A stretch of 64,000 bases of DNA from Escherichia coli. GTDB taxonomy: Bacteria; Pseudomonadota; Gammaproteobacteria; Enterobacterales; Enterobacteriaceae. The notes under the pieces were generated by a model, which was not told where the DNA came from, did no database searches, and saw only the letters and a list, made by a program, of their open reading frames with translations. Below are positions 35,568-45,333 of the stretch, piece by piece; position 1 is the stretch's first letter, and each line of letters begins with the position of its first letter. The DNA is taken from the NCBI RefSeq assembly GCF_050920415.1, contig NZ_CP169309.1. One strand, given 5' to 3'. The translations under genes and the position numbers were made by a program.

Positions 35568-35782
35568 AACGCCTCCAGCCTCATTACTTACCCGCACAAA
35601 ATAGAATTGTGCTGTACAAACGTCCAGTTTGAAAGAAGTTTCCTGCGAGGCGCTACGCAAAACGATCCTTAATTTTTATTATTTTATCCCACAATATGAG
35701 ACGTAGTTTATATTGTGGGATATATCACCTTTTCCCCACGTCATTATGTGGAACACTTCAGCAATATCATCAGGAGAAACGT

Positions 35783-36550
35783 ATGGCAGATACCTCTTCA
35801 ACCACCGCTGGCGCACAAACGTTATTACGCGGGCTGGCGGTTCTTAATGCTGTTTATAACGGCTGCCATGACCTGAAAAGTATCGGCGAGTTCACCGGCA
35901 CGACCCGGAGCACAACCCATCGTTTAGTCACCGTTCTGGTGGAACAACGCTACCTGCGCCACGTCCCAACGCAGGGCTACCAACTGGGCGCCAAACTGAT
36001 CGAATTCGGTGCCAGAGCGCTGGAAAGCACCTCGCTGTACGAAGTTGCGCTGCCCGTTTTGCAACGCCTTGCCCGTTACACCCTGGACACCGTGCATCTG
36101 GGGATCGTTGAAGGCGACGAAGTGCTGTATCTGGAGAAGATCAACAGCCAGCGCGGGCTGGAAATGCGCTCACGCCCAGGCCATCGCATGCCACTGGCAA
36201 TCACCGGCATCGGCAAGGCATTGATCCTCAACCGAACAGAAGAAGAGTGGCGCACGCTGTTTAAGACCTGTGGTGATGAAACAAAACTGGGCGCATTTAT
36301 TCAGAACATGCGTCGTTATGCCGCCAGTGGTTTTGCTTTTGATCTGGAAGAGAACGAGCCGACTATCCGTTGCGTTGCAGCGCCGGTTTACAACGCCCGG
36401 GATGAAATTGTGGCGGCTATTTCTGTCGCCAGTACCACTACGTATATGTCACTGGCGCGTCTGGAAGAACTGGCACCTTACGTCAAATCCTGTGCAGAAG
36501 AGATATCCGCTGAACTGGGCTGGGGTAAGCACGTTCACAAAAATAAATAA
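35783..36550 (+). CDS. IclR-family transcriptional regulator (start at MADTSS after an AGGAG RBS)
   Basis: N-terminal HTH (LLRGLAVLNAV...) followed by an IclR-type effector domain; first gene of an accessory cluster. Confidence 0.7.
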   Translation: MADTSSTTAGAQTLLRGLAVLNAVYNGCHDLKSIGEFTGTTRSTTHRLVTVLVEQRYLRHVPTQGYQLGAKLIEFGARALESTSLYEVALPVLQRLARYTLDTVHLGIVEGDEVLYLEKINSQRGLEMRSRPGHRMPLAITGIGKALILNRTEEEWRTLFKTCGDETKLGAFIQNMRRYAASGFAFDLEENEPTIRCVAAPVYNARDEIVAAISVASTTTYMSLARLEELAPYVKSCAEEISAELGWGKHVHKNK

Positions 36551-36573
36551 ACCATGACTAAAGGAAACGGCTA

Positions 36574-37578
36574 ATGTCGGGAAACACCTCATTTATTGCC
36601 CTGGACTGGGGAACGTCATCGCTTCGGGCATGGCGTTTTGGCGACTCACCCAATCCACAAGAAAAACGTGAATTCCCGTGGGGGATCATGAAATTACCCT
36701 CCCAGGCAGCAACACGTGAGGACGCTTTCCACGATACGTTTTTACGTGTCTGCGGCGACTGGCTGGCACAATCCCCATGCCCGATTCTGGCTTGCGGCAT
36801 GATCGGCAGTGCGCAAGGGTGGCAACCCGCAGCTTATTTACCTTGCCCGGTCACTCTCGAGGGTCTGGCAAAGCAGTTGACGCCTGTTATCTACCAGCAG
36901 CAGACAATGCTGCACATCATTCCCGGCGTGATTAAAGAAGGTGAAATGCCCGAAGTGATGCGTGGCGAAGAGACACAAATCTTCGGTGCTATCTCGATGG
37001 AACCGGCCCTGCAAAACGCGCTCCGCCAGGGTATGCCTGTGCTGATTGGCTTACCTGGCACACATGCGAAATGGGCGGTAGTTGAAAACAACACCATTAC
37101 CGATTTTCGAACCTTTATGACAGGCGAGTTATTTGATGTTTTATCCCGCCATTCGATTCTCGGTGCCACCATGCGTTCGGGAGATGAACCGCACTGGGAT
37201 GCCTTCGCCCACGGGCTGACAGCGGCACAAGAGCATCATCAGACCGGATTATTATCGACGCTGTTTTCGACCCGTTCGCGCCTGCTGACCAGTAATCTTA
37301 CGCCGTCCTCACAGGGGGATTACCTTTCAGGATTACTGATAGGCCATGAATTATGCGGTCTGGCATCCAGTTTGCTACGTGATTTACCCGCCACAACACC
37401 GATCGCCTTAATCGGTAGCGCCACTCTGAACAGCCGCTATTCACAAGCATTCAGCCACGTTTTTCCCGACAGACAGCTACACGCCATTCCTAATGCCACT
37501 GAACAGGGGTTATGGCGAATCGCCCACGCTGCCGGGCTACTCTCCACCAACGCCAGGGAATGTACTCATGCCATTTAA
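36574..37578 (+). CDS. 2-dehydro-3-deoxygalactonokinase-like sugar-acid kinase (DgoK family)
   Basis: Motifs IALDWGTSSLRAW, VMRGEETQIFGA, PGTHAKW, DFRTFMTGELF and LSGLLIG parallel E. coli DgoK. Confidence 0.7.
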   Translation: MSGNTSFIALDWGTSSLRAWRFGDSPNPQEKREFPWGIMKLPSQAATREDAFHDTFLRVCGDWLAQSPCPILACGMIGSAQGWQPAAYLPCPVTLEGLAKQLTPVIYQQQTMLHIIPGVIKEGEMPEVMRGEETQIFGAISMEPALQNALRQGMPVLIGLPGTHAKWAVVENNTITDFRTFMTGELFDVLSRHSILGATMRSGDEPHWDAFAHGLTAAQEHHQTGLLSTLFSTRSRLLTSNLTPSSQGDYLSGLLIGHELCGLASSLLRDLPATTPIALIGSATLNSRYSQAFSHVFPDRQLHAIPNATEQGLWRIAHAAGLLSTNARECTHAI

Positions 37579-38197
37579 TACGCTTTTGCAAAAAACCGGG
37601 TTAGTCGCCATTTTACGCGGCGTGAAACCGGATGAGATTGTCGCCATCGGTGAAAAGCTGTATGCCTCTGGATTTCGCCTGATTGAGATTCCCATGAACT
37701 CGCCGGAGCCGTTGCAAAGTATCAGTTTACTGCGCGACGCCCTGCCTAAGGACTGCCTGGTCGGAGCCGGAACTGTGCTTTCGGTGGAGCACGTCGTCGC
37801 GGTTAAAGAGGCTGGAGGCCAGATTATCGTGATGCCGCATTGCGATACTGCGGTGATCCGTCGTGCCCGTGCGCTGGGTATGTATTGTGCGCCTGGCGTC
37901 GCTACGCCCACCGAAGCTTTTGCTGCCATTGAGCATGGTGCTAATGCCATCAAGCTGTTCCCGGCTGAACAAATTACGCCTGAAGTCACCAAAGCCTGGC
38001 GTGCGGTTATTCCACAATCCGTTCCGATGTTACCGGTTGGCGGTATCACTCCGGAAACCATGGCGCGTTATCTGAGCCACGGTGCAAACGGCTTTGGTCT
38101 CGGTTCTGCGCTTTATCGCCCTGGCATGACGCCAGAGCAGGTCTATAAAAATGCAGTACTGTTTATGAACGCATGGACCAATTTAAACAACAACTAA
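37568..38197 (+). CDS. 2-dehydro-3-deoxy-6-phosphogalactonate aldolase-like (DgoA/Eda family; start at MPFNTLLQ)
   Basis: AILRGVKPDEIV..IEIPMNSPEP motifs of KDPGal/KDPG aldolases; ATG overlaps the kinase stop. Confidence 0.7.
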   Translation: MPFNTLLQKTGLVAILRGVKPDEIVAIGEKLYASGFRLIEIPMNSPEPLQSISLLRDALPKDCLVGAGTVLSVEHVVAVKEAGGQIIVMPHCDTAVIRRARALGMYCAPGVATPTEAFAAIEHGANAIKLFPAEQITPEVTKAWRAVIPQSVPMLPVGGITPETMARYLSHGANGFGLGSALYRPGMTPEQVYKNAVLFMNAWTNLNNN

Positions 38198-38221
38198 CTG
38201 ATAAATAAGGATATAAAAACA

Positions 38222-39196
38222 ATGATAAAACATCTTACCTTACCGAAAAAAATGGCTGCAATGGTACTCCTTGCCGGCGCTTCCCTCAGCACTGCGCCTG
38301 TGCAGGCGGCCTCCTACCCAACCAAACAGATCGAGTTAGTCGTACCCTACGCGGCCGGAGGCGGTACGGATCTGGTTGCCCGTGCCTTTGCTGATGCCGC
38401 CAAAAACCATTTGCCCGTCAGCATCGGGGTTATCAATAAACCTGGCGGTGGCGGCGCTATCGGCCTGAGTGAAATCGCCGCTGCCCGCCCTAACGGTTAC
38501 AAAATGGGTTTAGGCACGGTTGAACTGACCACCCTTCCCAGCCTCGGAATGGTGCGTTTTAAAACCAGCGACTTTAAACCCATTGCCCGTCTGAACGCGG
38601 ATCCGGCTGCTATCACCGTCCGTTCTGATGCGCCGTGGAATAGCTATGAAGAATTTATGACTTACGCCAAAGCGAATCCCGGAAAAGTACGCATTGGTAA
38701 CTCAGGCACCGGAGCAATCTGGCATCTGGCGGCAGCTGCACTGGAAGACAAAACGGGCGTGAAGTTTTCTCATGTCCCATATGACGGCGCAGCCCCTGCC
38801 ATTACAGGCCTGTTAGGCGGGCATATTGAAGCGGTTTCCGTAAGCCCAGGTGAAGTTATCAATCATGTGAAAGGCGGCAAGCTGAAGACACTGGTAGTGA
38901 TGGCGGATGAACATATGAAAACCATGCCTGACGTACCGACGTTAAAAGAGAAAGGCGTTGATCTCTCCATCGGCACCTGGCGCGGTCTGATCGTGTCGCA
39001 AAAAACGCCGCAGGATGTGGTTGATGTTCTGGCTAAGGCCGCAAAAGAGACGGCTGAAGAGCCTGCATTCCAGGATGCTCTGCAAAAGTTGAATCTCAAC
39101 TATGCATGGCTTGATGGTGCCAGCTTCCAGACCCAAATCAACGAACAGGAAAAGTACTTTGACGAGTTACTAACTCGGCTGGGCTTGAAAAAATAA
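38222..39196 (+). CDS. tctC: Tripartite tricarboxylate transporter substrate-binding protein (TctC/Bug family)
   Basis: 324 aa with signal peptide; Bug-family periplasmic binding protein features. Confidence 0.7.
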   Translation: MIKHLTLPKKMAAMVLLAGASLSTAPVQAASYPTKQIELVVPYAAGGGTDLVARAFADAAKNHLPVSIGVINKPGGGGAIGLSEIAAARPNGYKMGLGTVELTTLPSLGMVRFKTSDFKPIARLNADPAAITVRSDAPWNSYEEFMTYAKANPGKVRIGNSGTGAIWHLAAAALEDKTGVKFSHVPYDGAAPAITGLLGGHIEAVSVSPGEVINHVKGGKLKTLVVMADEHMKTMPDVPTLKEKGVDLSIGTWRGLIVSQKTPQDVVDVLAKAAKETAEEPAFQDALQKLNLNYAWLDGASFQTQINEQEKYFDELLTRLGLKK

Positions 39197-39212
39197 TCCC
39201 GAGGTACGGTCG

Positions 39213-39719
39213 ATGAACACAAAACAGTCTGTTGCTCAACTCGCCGTACCGCACCGCAAGCGCCTTTCATCCACTGTGGTGGTGGCGCTGTTACTTTGTG
39301 TGGTTGCTGGCGCGGTGATAATTAATGCCGCTGATTTTCCAGCAACTGCCATTGAAACGGATCCCGGTGCAAGTGCCTTCCCTACTTTCTATGCCTGCGC
39401 TCTGATTGTGCTCGCTGTCTTACTGGTGATACGCGATCTTTTGCTGGCAAAACCAGTCCCTTGCGCCAACGCACAGGAAAAACCGGCATTAAGGAAAACG
39501 GCAACAGGAATTGCGGCAACCGCGTTTTATATTGTGGCGATGAGCTACTGCGGTTATCTCATTACTACTCCTGTTTTCCTCATCGTCATTATGACGTTGA
39601 TGGGCTACAGGCGATGGGTACTCACACCGGGTATTGCGCTGCTGTTAACGGCAATCCTCTGGTTGCTGTTTGTCGAAGCGTTACAGGTGCCATTGCCTGT
39701 CGGCACATTTTTCGAATAA
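39213..39719 (+). CDS. tctB: Tripartite tricarboxylate transporter small membrane subunit (TctB-like)
   Basis: 168 aa, four predicted TM helices, located between tctC and tctA. Confidence 0.55.
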   Translation: MNTKQSVAQLAVPHRKRLSSTVVVALLLCVVAGAVIINAADFPATAIETDPGASAFPTFYACALIVLAVLLVIRDLLLAKPVPCANAQEKPALRKTATGIAATAFYIVAMSYCGYLITTPVFLIVIMTLMGYRRWVLTPGIALLLTAILWLLFVEALQVPLPVGTFFE

Positions 39720-39731
39720 CAGGGGCCTGCA

Positions 39732-41222
39732 ATGTTTGAAAGTGAACTTTTAACTCAGGGGTTTTCGACATTACTCAGTAATCCTCAGGCGCTGCTGTTT
39801 GCCACGTTTGGAGTGATGCTGGGTATTATGATTGGCGCTCTGCCTGGCCTGACAGCGACCATGGGTGTGGCGATTTTGCTGCCTTTCACCTACGGCATGG
39901 AGCCTGTTTCTGGCTTATTGATGATTTGCGGTGTCTTTTTTGGTGGTGTGTATGGTGGTTCTATCACCGCAATTTTGCTCAAAATTCCCGGTACACCTGC
40001 CGCCGCTGCCACCGCCATTGACGGATATGAGCTGACGAAGCAGGGAAAAGCCGGGCTGGCGTTAAGTGCCGCCACGTTCTCTTCTTTTAGCGGTGGAACG
40101 CTCAGCATTATCGTATTGATGTTTCTCTCTCCGGTACTTGCCAGTTGGGCGTTGAAATTTAGTGCCTCGGAGTCCTTCGCCCTGGCAACCTTCGGGCTAA
40201 GTATTATTGCCAGTATTTCCGGTGAGTCACTGATTAAAGGGCTGATTGCCGGGGTTGGCGGATTGCTGATCGCAACGATAGGCCTTGATCCAATGGGCGG
40301 TTTTCCACGCTTTACAGGTGGATTTGTGGAGCTGATGAATGTGCCATTTATCCCGGTGATGATTGGTCTGTTTGCTGCTTCAGAAGCATTCCGCTCTATG
40401 GAGCAAAACCAGCAAATTCGTCAGGGGGCGAAGGTGGCTATCGGCAGTCTGTTACTGCCCTGGCAAACACTACGCCGCATCGCATTAACCATTTTGCGCT
40501 CATCAGGATTAGGGGTTTTTATCGGCATGATCCCCGGTGCGGGGGCAGATATTGCAGCTTTTGTTGCCTATAACGAAACTCGTCGTTTCAGTAAGACGCC
40601 TGAAAACTTTGGTAAGGGTGAGATTAAGGCGGTGGCCTCCTGTGAGGCAGGCGCGAATGGCTGCACCGGTGGCGCATTGTTACCTATGCTGACGTTGGGG
40701 ATCCCAGGCGATGCGGTAACTGCCATCATGCTGGGCGCGTTAACGTTACAAGGGATGCAGCCAGGCCCACTGATGTTTACCGACCACGGCGATATGGTTT
40801 ATACGCTGTTTGTCGGCATGATCTTTTGTTACTTCATGCTGCTAGTTCTTGGACTGCTCTCTTTGAAAGTCATCGGTAACGTGGTGAAGATCCCCGGCAA
40901 TATTCTCACGCCGATGATCCTCGCGCTTTGTGTTGTTGGGACTTATGCGCTGAACAACAGCCTGTTTGATGTTGGCATTATGCTGATTGCAGGCGTGGTG
41001 GGCTATTTCATGCAAAAAGGGGGGTATCCGGCGTCACCCGTAGTGCTGGCATTGATTATGGGGCCAATGGCGGAAAGTAATTTTCGCCGTGCGCTGTCGC
41101 TTTCAGGGGGGTCACTCGACTTCCTGTATACCCGACCGATAACCCTGGCATTGCTGACTCTGGCAGCCTTTACGCTACTGACGCCAATAATACGCAAAAT
41201 TATGCGCTTACGGCGTCAGTAA
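39732..41222 (+). CDS. tctA: Tripartite tricarboxylate transporter large permease (TctA family)
   Basis: 496 aa polytopic membrane protein with glycine-rich TctA-like repeats. Confidence 0.75.
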   Translation: MFESELLTQGFSTLLSNPQALLFATFGVMLGIMIGALPGLTATMGVAILLPFTYGMEPVSGLLMICGVFFGGVYGGSITAILLKIPGTPAAAATAIDGYELTKQGKAGLALSAATFSSFSGGTLSIIVLMFLSPVLASWALKFSASESFALATFGLSIIASISGESLIKGLIAGVGGLLIATIGLDPMGGFPRFTGGFVELMNVPFIPVMIGLFAASEAFRSMEQNQQIRQGAKVAIGSLLLPWQTLRRIALTILRSSGLGVFIGMIPGAGADIAAFVAYNETRRFSKTPENFGKGEIKAVASCEAGANGCTGGALLPMLTLGIPGDAVTAIMLGALTLQGMQPGPLMFTDHGDMVYTLFVGMIFCYFMLLVLGLLSLKVIGNVVKIPGNILTPMILALCVVGTYALNNSLFDVGIMLIAGVVGYFMQKGGYPASPVVLALIMGPMAESNFRRALSLSGGSLDFLYTRPITLALLTLAAFTLLTPIIRKIMRLRRQ

Positions 41223-41276
41223 TTGATATCGCTCCCCGACGTTGGGGAGTATGAGACTGATGACAAACGCTAAATT

Positions 41277-41376
41277 GCCTGATGCGCTGCGCTTATCAGG
41301 CCTACCACAGAAATGCAATATATTGAATTTGCATGCTTTTGTAGGCCGGATAAGGCGATCACGCCGCATCCGGCAT
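41277..41376. repeat. RIP-type BIME: two inverted REP units flanking an AT-rich putative IHF-site spacer
   Basis: gcctgatgcgctgcgcttatcaggcctac ... tgcaatatattgaatttgcatg ... taggccggataaggcgatcacgccgcatccggca. Confidence 0.65.
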
Positions 41377-41407
41377 GAACAAAGCACACGTTAACAACAA
41401 TCGGAAT

Positions 41408-41440
41408 GCTCCCCGACGTTGGGGAGCGTTTTTTTATTTC
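41408..41440 (+). terminator. Hairpin plus T-run overlapping the udp 3' end; second copy of a duplicated 19 bp palindrome
   Basis: gctccccgacgttggggag followed by cgtttttttatttc; the identical hairpin also occurs at 41231-41249 just after tctA. Confidence 0.5.
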
Positions 41441-43272: not shown

Positions 43273-43663
43273 TTTCCTCTTAGTCTATATTTGAGATGGT
43301 GAGTGAACGAATGCGTTTTGCTGCCATCTCTGTCCCCCAAAAAATAATCAGTATGAATTGATTGGAGAGCACGACTCCGCTATTTGACCTTAAGAAAGTC
43401 GGCAAGTCATAGTCATAAATGAGTCTCTTCACTGGCAGACACCTTAAAGATTTACCATCAACTCCCATTCTCAAACAAACATTAATTATTATCAACACAT
43501 TCACATTAATTATAAATTATCTCAGACCTTCCTGATAAAAAGATATTAAAGTGAAACATTTTGTTTTTCACATTTTAGTTCATCCCTATTAGGCGTAAAT
43601 AAAGGTAAAAAATAACAATACTATTTTTCTTTCACAAAAGAATTAACAAAAGGTTTTTCAAGG

Positions 43664-44062
43664 ATGAGTGATATTATTTACCTGACCATAACCGGAGAAC
43701 AACACGGATGTATTTCCTCTCGTTGTGGAACGAGCACATCAATAGGTAATCGCTGGCAGATTGGTCATGAAGATGAAATCTTCGCGTTCTCGCTCTCTAA
43801 TAGTATTACGAATACAGGAAAAGGGTCACATTTGCATGGCCTTAGTTTCTGTAAGTTGATTGACAAAAGCTCCCCGTTACTTATTAACGCTATTAACAAT
43901 AACGAGCAGTTGTTCATGGAGTTTGACTTCTATCGGATCAATAGATTTGGTCGATGGGAGAAATATTACAACATTCAACTCCGCGGCGCGCTCTTATCAG
44001 CAATCAATCACCTGTTTACGGAGAACAATCTGGATACAGAAACCATCACTGTCAGTTATTAA
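43664..44062 (+). CDS. Hcp-like type VI secretion tube protein domain (132 aa, shorter than typical Hcp)
   Basis: IYLTITGEQHGCISSRCGTSTSIGNRWQIGHEDEIFAF, IDKSSPLLINAI, FYRINRFG and ETITVSY follow the Hcp1-family pattern; RBS before the ATG; AT-rich context. Confidence 0.6.
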   Translation: MSDIIYLTITGEQHGCISSRCGTSTSIGNRWQIGHEDEIFAFSLSNSITNTGKGSHLHGLSFCKLIDKSSPLLINAINNNEQLFMEFDFYRINRFGRWEKYYNIQLRGALLSAINHLFTENNLDTETITVSY

Positions 44063-44107
44063 TATATACTCTCCAGGCATCTGATTGCTAATACTGAATT
44101 TAGTTAT

Positions 44108-44812
44108 TTGGCATTTCCCGATAACTACAATCGTCTGTTTATACCACGGCCAAAAACTAAAGATGATAATGGCCTCAAAACACTCAATAGTAAAGCTGTT
44201 GGCAGACTGCTTGCTGCTGGCGGCATATACAATGGGAATATCGAAGGATTCAGGGAAACAGCAAACAAGTTGGGGGGAGATGCACCTGCTGGTTACGATC
44301 AAGTTATGGATAACAAAGGGTTACTCATCGCTGGTGCTTCAATAGTTGCTGGAGCAGTTCTGGGGAGAATGAGACTCCCTGATTTGGAATCACTTGAGCA
44401 TTTCGGAGCCAGAGGAGCAGTATCAGGAAGACCATTTAATCCCGACCTTGCCGGTGGTCCAATAGAAAATCTGACGACAGATGGCGTAACAATCAACAGG
44501 GAAGGTATCGCTATTGTTGAAAAACACATAGCCAGATTTGGTCATGACCCTGTAAATGAAGTGATGATCAATAGACTGAAAGACATTGAGAAAGGAAAAA
44601 TCCCCCCAGAACAAGTAGATCTTAACTTCTATACTCATGAATGTCGGGAATATCAGCGTTACTGTAATCTTGGTTGGGAAACAGGACAACCTGATGGTGA
44701 CGCAGGCTATGCACTCTGGAATCATACGCATACTGCTACTCTAGAAGATTATAAACTTAAGGGAGAACTTAATGACTTATACCACCAGGATGCACTTGAC
44801 TATGATAACTGA
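44108..44812 (+). CDS. Putative toxin/effector domain protein of unknown class
   Basis: 234 codon ORF in the same frame as the Hcp-like ORF, open from the TAA at 44060-44062; no ATG or clear RBS near its 5' end; glycine-zipper-like GLLIAGASIVAGAVLG segment. Confidence 0.4.
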   Translation: MAFPDNYNRLFIPRPKTKDDNGLKTLNSKAVGRLLAAGGIYNGNIEGFRETANKLGGDAPAGYDQVMDNKGLLIAGASIVAGAVLGRMRLPDLESLEHFGARGAVSGRPFNPDLAGGPIENLTTDGVTINREGIAIVEKHIARFGHDPVNEVMINRLKDIEKGKIPPEQVDLNFYTHECREYQRYCNLGWETGQPDGDAGYALWNHTHTATLEDYKLKGELNDLYHQDALDYDN

Positions 44813-45047
44813 AACTGAAATTAACGTACTGAAAGTTATGGCTGAGAAAGATATAAACTGGAACTGGATGAATCTCGATCGCACACTATCTATAAGGCAA
44901 ATTCCAGGATTCGGTAATGTTGTTAACATTGTTAACAAATTAGCTAACGAGGGTTTGGTTATTATTGAGGATAGCGGACATAAGTCTATGCCTCACTACC
45001 ACGTTACTGAAAAGGGATACAATCTCGTGAAAAGTGAGAATAAATAA
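44802..45047 (+). CDS. Small winged-helix-like protein, candidate immunity protein or regulator
   Basis: ATG at 44802 overlaps the upstream stop (ATGATAACTGA); the ~81 aa product has an HTH-like LSIRQIPGFGNVVNIVNKLANEGLV segment. Confidence 0.4.
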   Translation: MITETEINVLKVMAEKDINWNWMNLDRTLSIRQIPGFGNVVNIVNKLANEGLVIIEDSGHKSMPHYHVTEKGYNLVKSENK

Positions 45048-45195
45048 CGTAGCGTTGATTACTGAACAAATCGCTCAGGATTATATTTTGCGAAAAAAAT
45101 GATTCGGTTATTTCTGTGTCTGAACGGCCGCAGATAGCAAAATGGCTTCCGGTGATGGAAGCCATCAGATTATTGGCAAAGTGCGTGTTGTTCAT

Positions 45196-45226
45196 GCCGG
45201 ATGCGGCGTGAACGCCTTATCTGGCC
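45196..45226. repeat. REP element
   Basis: gccggatgcggcgtgaacgccttatctggcc. Confidence 0.7.
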
Positions 45227-45333
45227 AACTAAATCTTGAAAATTCAATAAATTGAATAAATTATGTAGGCCTGGTATCAGGCAGTTTCGCCTCTTTCATC
45301 GTACTGCAATTTACAGTGACTCGTTAATACTCA

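Follow-up and report, generated by a model that had tools for sequence, protein, structure and literature searches.

An internal stop codon within the Hcp domain suggests recent loss of an orphan Hcp-toxin effector gene in Escherichia coli

In a 64,000-nucleotide (nt) stretch of an Escherichia coli genome (RefSeq assembly GCF_050920415.1, contig NZ_CP169309.1), referred to here as the window, an open reading frame (ORF) for an Hcp-like protein is followed in the same frame by an ORF that resembles a toxin gene. On the basis of comparative sequence analysis, we consider 43664-44812 to be, with a probability of about 0.93, a recently inactivated gene for an orphan specialised Hcp effector of the type carrying a C-terminal extension toxin (Hcp-ET), which would have been lost through ordinary pseudogenisation by a nonsense mutation at codon 133 (E133*). 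In its intact form, the gene would encode a protein of 382 amino acids (aa) that consists of an N-terminal Hcp/TssD domain, a linker of ~100 aa and a 135-aa C-terminal polymorphic toxin, and a small immunity gene, its presumed cognate, would follow it. At 44060, a G-to-T transversion has converted Glu133 (GAA) to TAA, such that translation from the native ATG would stop within the Hcp fold and yield a 132-aa fragment without the last strand(s) for the Hcp ring. The toxin part would thereby be separated from its delivery domain, with no ribosome-binding site of its own, and the effector would be lost, while the intact immunity gene could still protect against kin delivering the same toxin. The type of lesion is already known, since the pseudogene with an 'internal stop' is already in RefSeq.

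Results

Translation of the window on the + strand gives 132 codons from ATG 43664 to TAA 44060-44062, and the same frame continues open from 44063 to TGA 44810-44812, so that the whole frame (43664-44812) comprises 382 codons with a single internal TAA at codon 133. This bears out the first-pass annotation of the window, according to which the Hcp-like ORF ends at this TAA and the downstream ORF lies in frame with it, and the measured length agrees with the roughly 380 aa that had been estimated for the full fusion. Between 44063 and 44812, the coding frame contains only its terminal stop and the other two frames contain 13 and 30 stops, which identifies the downstream frame as the genuine coding frame.

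On the intact orthologue, the NCBIfam model TIGR03344 covers residues 1-147 (positions 1-161 of 167 in the profile) with a score of 125.8 bits (cut-off, 58.9), Pfam T6SS_HCP (PF05638) matches residues 6-135 (E = 1.3e-13), and solved Hcp structures match at E = 5.5e-14. The score lies above the curated cut-off, and the intact protein can be assigned to the Hcp/TssD family. The solved Hcp 6a2v aligns to residues 3-145, with residue 145 corresponding to residue 161 of the 171 in 6a2v; near the C-terminus of this alignment, 'sYEYILSRH' is aligned to 'sYRKVVWEH', with codon 133 corresponding to the E of this strand. In the residues right after the stop (YILSRHLIANTE), the Hcp strand continues in conserved form, which argues against a coincidental frame relation between the two ORFs. 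Since codon 133 lies within an Hcp strand and the homology runs on to residue 145-147, the product made from the native start would lack the end of the Hcp fold; ending at residue 132, it would not amount to a complete Hcp fold. That the Hcp part is short had been pointed out in the first pass, and it looked short because the stop falls inside the Hcp fold.

We compared the locus across 5426 complete E. coli genomes by megablast, using 43600-45100 as the query. Matches were obtained in 848 of these genomes, in every case on the chromosome, and the Hcp segment of the accessory islet in which the gene lies was present in 846 of the 5426, likewise on the chromosome only. Alleles were counted among the 846 locus-carrying genomes as exact matches to the 62-mer 44043-44104. 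The version with a sense codon at 44060-44062, GAA (Glu), was found in 808/846 genomes and the version with TAA in 23/846. In the alignment, GAA stands at this position in GPT24-02, FDAARGOS_448, CFT073 and 2017-02-2CC, whereas the window and N96 have TAA there. The carriers of TAA are chiefly O121:H19 E. coli producing Shiga toxin (STEC) and bovine isolates, and they also include NCTC9064, the O103 strain ML775, N96 and MFDS1022581.

The intact orthologues encode one continuous protein of 377 or 382 aa, which is annotated as "TssD". RefSeq has a single continuous tssD of 1149 nt in GPT24-02 (98.1% identical) and a tssD of 1134 nt in FDAARGOS_448. For N96 (99.9% identical), the Prokaryotic Genome Annotation Pipeline (PGAP) of RefSeq gives the corresponding 1149 nt as a tssD pseudogene with 'internal stop', and the ML775 copy is treated likewise. 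The nearest intact allele, that of 2017-02-2CC (also annotated tssD), has 7 differences in 2061 nt (99.7% identical), and its protein differs from the 382-codon product of the window by the stop and P208S only, which indicates that the loss is recent on the window haplotype. Records of an identical 132-aa product come from 50 contigs, those of the intact 382-aa protein of the PCN033 type from at least 1000. None of the relatives compared has an orthologue arranged as two genes with a separate start for the second. With a sense codon in orthologues that encode one continuous protein, the window copy is, as far as sequence can tell, a pseudogene by nonsense mutation, as the first-pass annotation had suspected when it proposed a once-continuous Hcp-toxin fusion cut by such a mutation.

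Further lesions have accumulated at the same locus. W98* (TGG to TAG) was found, as an exact 64-mer, in 257/845 genomes, including CFT073, Nissle 1917 and the type strain ATCC 11775, such that a nonsense allele (W98* or E133*) is present in at least (257 + 23)/846 = 33% of the locus carriers. In MFDS1022581, an insertion sequence (IS), IS2, has inserted into the linker, and the gene is 100% identical to the window on either side; 13E0780, OkiPb01680 and UTAK-1 carry, together with the TAA, a 22-nt deletion at 43858-43879; a transposase of the IS903B family is annotated inside the matched locus of EC2641; and 142-aa truncations as well as an IS1 fusion occur in Shigella. At least four other independent lesions were counted in the gene, with the immunity gene kept throughout. 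The locus is decaying across many lineages, and E133* thus appears as ordinary gene loss rather than as a regulatory or recoding device.

The first-pass annotation had also considered a sequencing error, in which case the true codon would be GAA and the gene intact. A one-base difference from 808 genomes is something that such an error could cause. However, several laboratories and platforms contributed the 23 complete genomes, sequenced and assembled independently, in which the TAA 62-mer was found, the identical 132-aa product is not confined to one record (50 contigs), and in some of these genomes the TAA allele is found together with later lesions, namely the IS2 insertion and the 22-nt deletion, as expected of a gene that is really dead. 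Given the presence of the allele in independent assemblies, a sequencing or assembly error is highly improbable and can be set aside for practical purposes.

We regard it as extremely improbable that programmed readthrough or recoding of the stop codon yields low-level full-length Hcp-toxin protein. Nothing specific speaks for this possibility, apart from the fact that the frame is preserved past the stop. The stop is a TAA followed by T, the most efficient termination context in E. coli. Furthermore, the plain GAA in 808 genomes implies that there is no conserved recoding signal, and no stimulatory structure was noticed around the stop, though none was looked for.

The distribution of the inactivating mutation itself is odd. 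Among the strains examined, TAA at 44060 was found on three haplotypes. Haplotype A comprises the window, N96 and MFDS1022581, the last with its IS2 insertion as an extra lesion; haplotype B comprises the O121 strains, NCTC9064 and ML775, with no extra lesion seen; and haplotype C comprises the three strains with the 22-nt deletion. Haplotypes B and C have three further derived sites in common (43945G, 44109G and 44220T), which suggests one origin for the two. Between haplotypes A and B there are 33 differing sites over 1461 nt; of these, the single-nucleotide polymorphisms nearest to 44060 lie 18 nt upstream (44042) and 49 nt downstream (44109). Moreover, 2017-02-2CC, the closest relative of haplotype A, has GAA. 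The occurrence of TAA on diverged haplotypes, together with this GAA, implies either that the G-to-T change happened twice or that it was transferred by conversion over a tract no longer than 66 nt. Since a stop could arise in the gene by 146 different single-nucleotide changes, of which 38 are G-to-T, and since the gene has suffered many independent inactivations, a coincident second hit is mildly, not wildly, improbable. One could speculate that the orphan Hcp-toxin has been lost repeatedly, and possibly under selection, with retention of immunity, and that the double hit at codon 133 stems from a mutational hotspot or from gene conversion over a tract of the above length, but we put this forward as a tentative idea that may well turn out to be wrong.

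A further possibility, which the first-pass annotation had listed as a recently split gene pair, is that the two halves function separately, with a 132-aa Hcp fragment and a toxin fragment that is started at TTG 44108 (by reinitiation), ATG 44369 or TTG 44384. The downstream frame is fully open and only one amino-acid change away from the nearest intact allele, there are weak Shine-Dalgarno-like sequences in front of 44369 (duplex free energy, dG, -5.6) and 44384 (dG -6.4), and PGAP places a 150-161 aa 'colicin' coding sequence (CDS) here in O121-type genomes. However, an open frame is to be expected after a recent nonsense mutation. TTG 44108 sits 444 nt (148 codons) 3' of ATG 43664 and hence in the same frame, and its codon specifies an internal Leu of the fusion protein in the intact orthologues. 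Shine-Dalgarno pairing was sought at this TTG and none was found, the duplex dG being +0.4 kcal/mol against a background across the window with a mean of -1.8 kcal/mol and a 5th percentile of -6.1; the earlier statement that there is no convincing ribosome-binding site near the downstream start thus holds. The earliest in-frame ATG after the stop is at 44306 (codon 215). It had been placed about 65 codons into the downstream ORF, which is correct when counted from TTG 44108 (66 codons); its distance from the stop is 82 codons.

[quoted passage not shown] We thus consider a functional split pair quite improbable, and the loss of a single effector gene remains our preferred reading of the locus.

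The part of the fusion that lies C-terminal to the Hcp domain matched no family in Pfam-A even at E <= 10 (T6SS_HCP alone was returned), in NCBIfam (TIGR03344 alone) or in PADLOC, and phmmer and profile searches of the toxin domain against PDB sequences gave nothing significant. When 1.84 billion representative proteins were searched with a profile of the 135-aa domain, it was retrieved from 598 clusters at E <= 0.001. It sits almost always at the C-terminus, in proteins of up to 5214 aa, and in 24 carriers that were scanned with Pfam the regions upstream of it were Pyocin_S, Cloacin (the translocation region of colicin type), RHS repeats with PAAR, WXG100, LysM and Peptidase_S8. This is the signature of a widespread polymorphic-toxin module, whose toxicity is predicted from architecture and context, and the carriers suggest that its target is probably intracellular.

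AlphaFold, run on the toxin domain with a diverse 60-sequence alignment, returned four long helices and two short C-terminal ones (predicted local distance difference test score, pLDDT, 97.2; predicted template modelling score, pTM, 0.91). The residues that are invariant in the family are R9, G34, H41, D72, H78, E79, E82, W105 and H109, in the numbering of the 135-aa domain, and the motif of the domain reads FYTHE[LC]RE ... LWNNAHTATLEDY. NCBI labels fragments of the fusion protein either 'colicin' or 'HNH endonuclease'. The 'colicin' label fits the carriers of the toxin domain. An HNH or His-Me finger nuclease (beta-beta-alpha-metal, H-N-H motif) was also considered and was found to be unsupported by profile or fold comparison. 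For some non-Hcp carriers, a match to PF26362 is available in precomputed form, which a local copy of Pfam failed to reproduce on one protein. As described for Ntox32 in Zhang et al. (2012), that family is all-alpha, has a conserved H, K/R, E/D and D/E, and occurs on Peptidase S8 and RHS carriers; Ntox32 is a possible name for the toxin domain, to be taken as an unverified lead.

Homologues whose N-terminal carriers are of other kinds keep the linker between the two domains along with the toxin domain (88-98% query coverage); the linker was modelled at low confidence. Its hydrophobic segment GLLIAGASIVAGAVLG, situated between Hcp and toxin, could be a membrane-interaction or entry element.

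The 81-aa ORF that follows overlaps the 3' end of the toxin gene, and the corresponding protein, WP_000627422.1, is an annotated CDS in N96 and 2017-02-2CC. A Pfam search with it gave weak winged-helix matches alone (E = 0.07). With respect to its start, the Shine-Dalgarno signal is stronger at ATG 44772 (dG -8.4; AAGGGAGAA) than at the RefSeq start 44802 (dG -4.1), and initiation at 44772 would give a 91-aa protein with a 41-nt overlap with the toxin gene; both lengths are on the database record. Because the homology between this ORF and the orphan copies found in other genomes begins at 44803, we have retained the RefSeq start despite the stronger signal upstream.

Such orphan copies are found in the commoner type of the locus, represented by FDAARGOS_448 and CFT073, where the toxin has different last ~80 residues. 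The first small ORF of these loci is 60% identical to the putative immunity ORF of the window and the second, orphan one is 89-90% identical to it. The small downstream ORF covaries with the C-terminal end of the toxin. Such a combination, in which a toxin variant has its cognate immunity gene and an orphan immunity gene is kept, would correspond to the usual arrangement, with protection by the small ORF being predicted. No promoter-like site was seen immediately 5' of the immunity gene, and the ~750 nt of untranslated mRNA that now precede it may lower its expression by transcriptional polarity.

The pseudogene and the immunity gene together lie in an AT-rich islet between ysgA and metE, in which the GC content is 0.34-0.45 as compared to 0.53-0.57 in the flanks. 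In E. coli 55989, ysgA directly adjoins metE, such that this strain shows the empty site. The coordinates of all features are collected in Table 1.

Table 1. Features of the ysgA-metE islet, in positions of the window
Feature	Position	Strand	Basis or remark
AT-rich accessory islet between ysgA and metE, with Hcp-toxin pseudogene and immunity gene	43273..45333	.	GC; empty site in 55989
hcp-ET (tssD-toxin fusion) pseudogene, 382 codons, one internal stop	43664..44812	+	translation; intact 1149-nt tssD orthologues
Hcp/TssD tube-protein domain, residues 1-147, cut at residue 133	43664..44104	+	TIGR03344, Pfam T6SS_HCP, 6a2v
Premature TAA, Glu133 to stop, G-to-T transversion at 44060	44060..44062	+	alignment with relatives; 62-mer counts
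Linker, residues 148-247, with Gly/Ala-rich hydrophobic stretch GLLIAGASIVAGAVLG at ~44318-44365	44105..44404	+	kept with toxin domain in homologues
TTG taken by ORF callers as start of downstream ORF; not a credible initiation site	44108..44110	+	Shine-Dalgarno duplex dG +0.4
C-terminal polymorphic-toxin domain (predicted), residues 248-382, helical, motif FYTHE[CL]RE...LWNxxHTATLEDY	44405..44809	+	
Putative immunity gene, intact, 81 aa (alternative ATG 44772: 91 aa)	44802..45047	+	RefSeq WP_000627422.1

The remainder of the islet, from the immunity gene to metE (~45050-45333), is partly repeated DNA: the islet query gave 71,114 matches across 5425 genomes (median, 11 matches each). In other haplotypes, a 123-nt 'hypothetical protein' gene (WP_001230617.1) is annotated in this spacer.

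Two other regions of the window differ between strains. A second accessory block extends from rmuC to udp (~35780-41222) and encodes, according to the annotation of N96, an IclR regulator, a 2-dehydro-3-deoxygalactonokinase, an aldolase and a TctABC-type transporter; in E. coli 55989, rmuC adjoins udp and the block is absent. At ~41223-41433, between udp and the end of the tctA-like gene for a tripartite tricarboxylate transporter permease, the window is ~178 nt longer than N96, and the small ORFs found there look like translated palindromic repeats of the repetitive extragenic palindrome/bacterial interspersed mosaic element (REP/BIME) type.

Discussion

An established class of effectors in Enterobacteriaceae consists of Hcp proteins that bear toxins as C-terminal extensions (Hcp-ET1 to 5; Ma et al. 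2017, cited through PMC6730261 and PMC6099711), and the class has been delimited by an Hcp core with a C-terminal extension of > 60 aa (PMC8262886). The intact orthologues of the window gene, at 377-382 aa, have ~235 aa beyond the Hcp domain; in the window itself, such an extension is present only in the reconstructed frame. As in this class, an N-terminal Hcp/TssD domain is combined with a predicted C-terminal toxin domain and encoded outside T6SS clusters, with a small putative immunity gene 3' of it, and the locus is polymorphic between strains, with duplicate or orphan copies of such genes. Unlike the members of this class, the window copy is a pseudogene, and its toxin matches none of the five named clans of Hcp-ET1-5 in a Pfam scan. 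The Hcp-ET1 locus was also considered as a counterpart; since E. coli 55989, a reported Hcp-ET1 carrier, has the empty site between ysgA and metE, the window locus is not the Hcp-ET1 locus.

A link to a gene with a known mutant phenotype comes from extraintestinal pathogenic E. coli (ExPEC) of pigs. In strain PCN033, hcp3 was described as a 1149-bp ORF that is distant from the T6SS cluster and Hcp-like in its first half only (Peng et al. 2016, PMC4882540). Its deletion reduced invasion of PK-15 cells, replication in macrophages and colonisation of mice, while competition with, or killing of, E. coli W3110 was unaffected (PMC4882540). The PCN033 genome has an intact tssD of 1149 nt at the ysgA-metE locus, 97.4% identical to the window over 2061 nt. 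By its ORF length, the published description and its position, the intact orthologue is almost certainly hcp3 of PCN033, the difference being that the PCN033 gene is intact and the window allele is E133*.

The allele of CFT073, Nissle 1917 and ATCC 11775 is similar to that of the window in its metE-proximal position, in having the same Hcp domain, and in being an 'internal stop' pseudogene as well. It differs by its lesion, W98*, and by a different C-terminal end of the toxin. Furthermore, the CFT073 allele has a different left flank upstream, and the CFT073-type locus carries its own immunity gene together with an orphan copy of the window-type one. Beyond Hcp proteins, S-type pyocins, colicin-like bacteriocins, Rhs-PAAR proteins and WXG100/LXG proteins share the same 135-aa domain at the C-terminus, a module for which these proteins offer neither a Pfam family nor a solved structure.

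Several points weigh against our interpretation of 43664-44812 as a lost Hcp-ET effector gene. Both the activity of the toxin and the protection by the small ORF are predicted from architecture and context. In N96, the closest annotated genome, the stretch corresponding to the window's first 50 kb contains no annotated T6SS core gene. The candidate internal starts ATG 44369 and TTG 44384 have modest Shine-Dalgarno sequences, albeit at poor spacing, and low-level readthrough, or reinitiation at internal starts, may occur. Finally, the almost certain identity with hcp3 draws on ORF length, description and position rather than on a published sequence.

For annotation, these results mean that the 132-aa 'Hcp' and the 234-aa TTG-initiated ORF are to be treated as one pseudogene and not as two proteins, as RefSeq already does for near-identical genomes. 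The toxin-domain family is large (about 600 clusters at 50% identity) and is found on pyocin-like, Rhs, WXG100 and Hcp carriers. As for the strain itself, it would be without one predicted T6SS-delivered weapon and would have kept the antidote. A lost effector with an intact antidote is a common pattern at this locus, where at least a third of the carriers have one of the two nonsense alleles.

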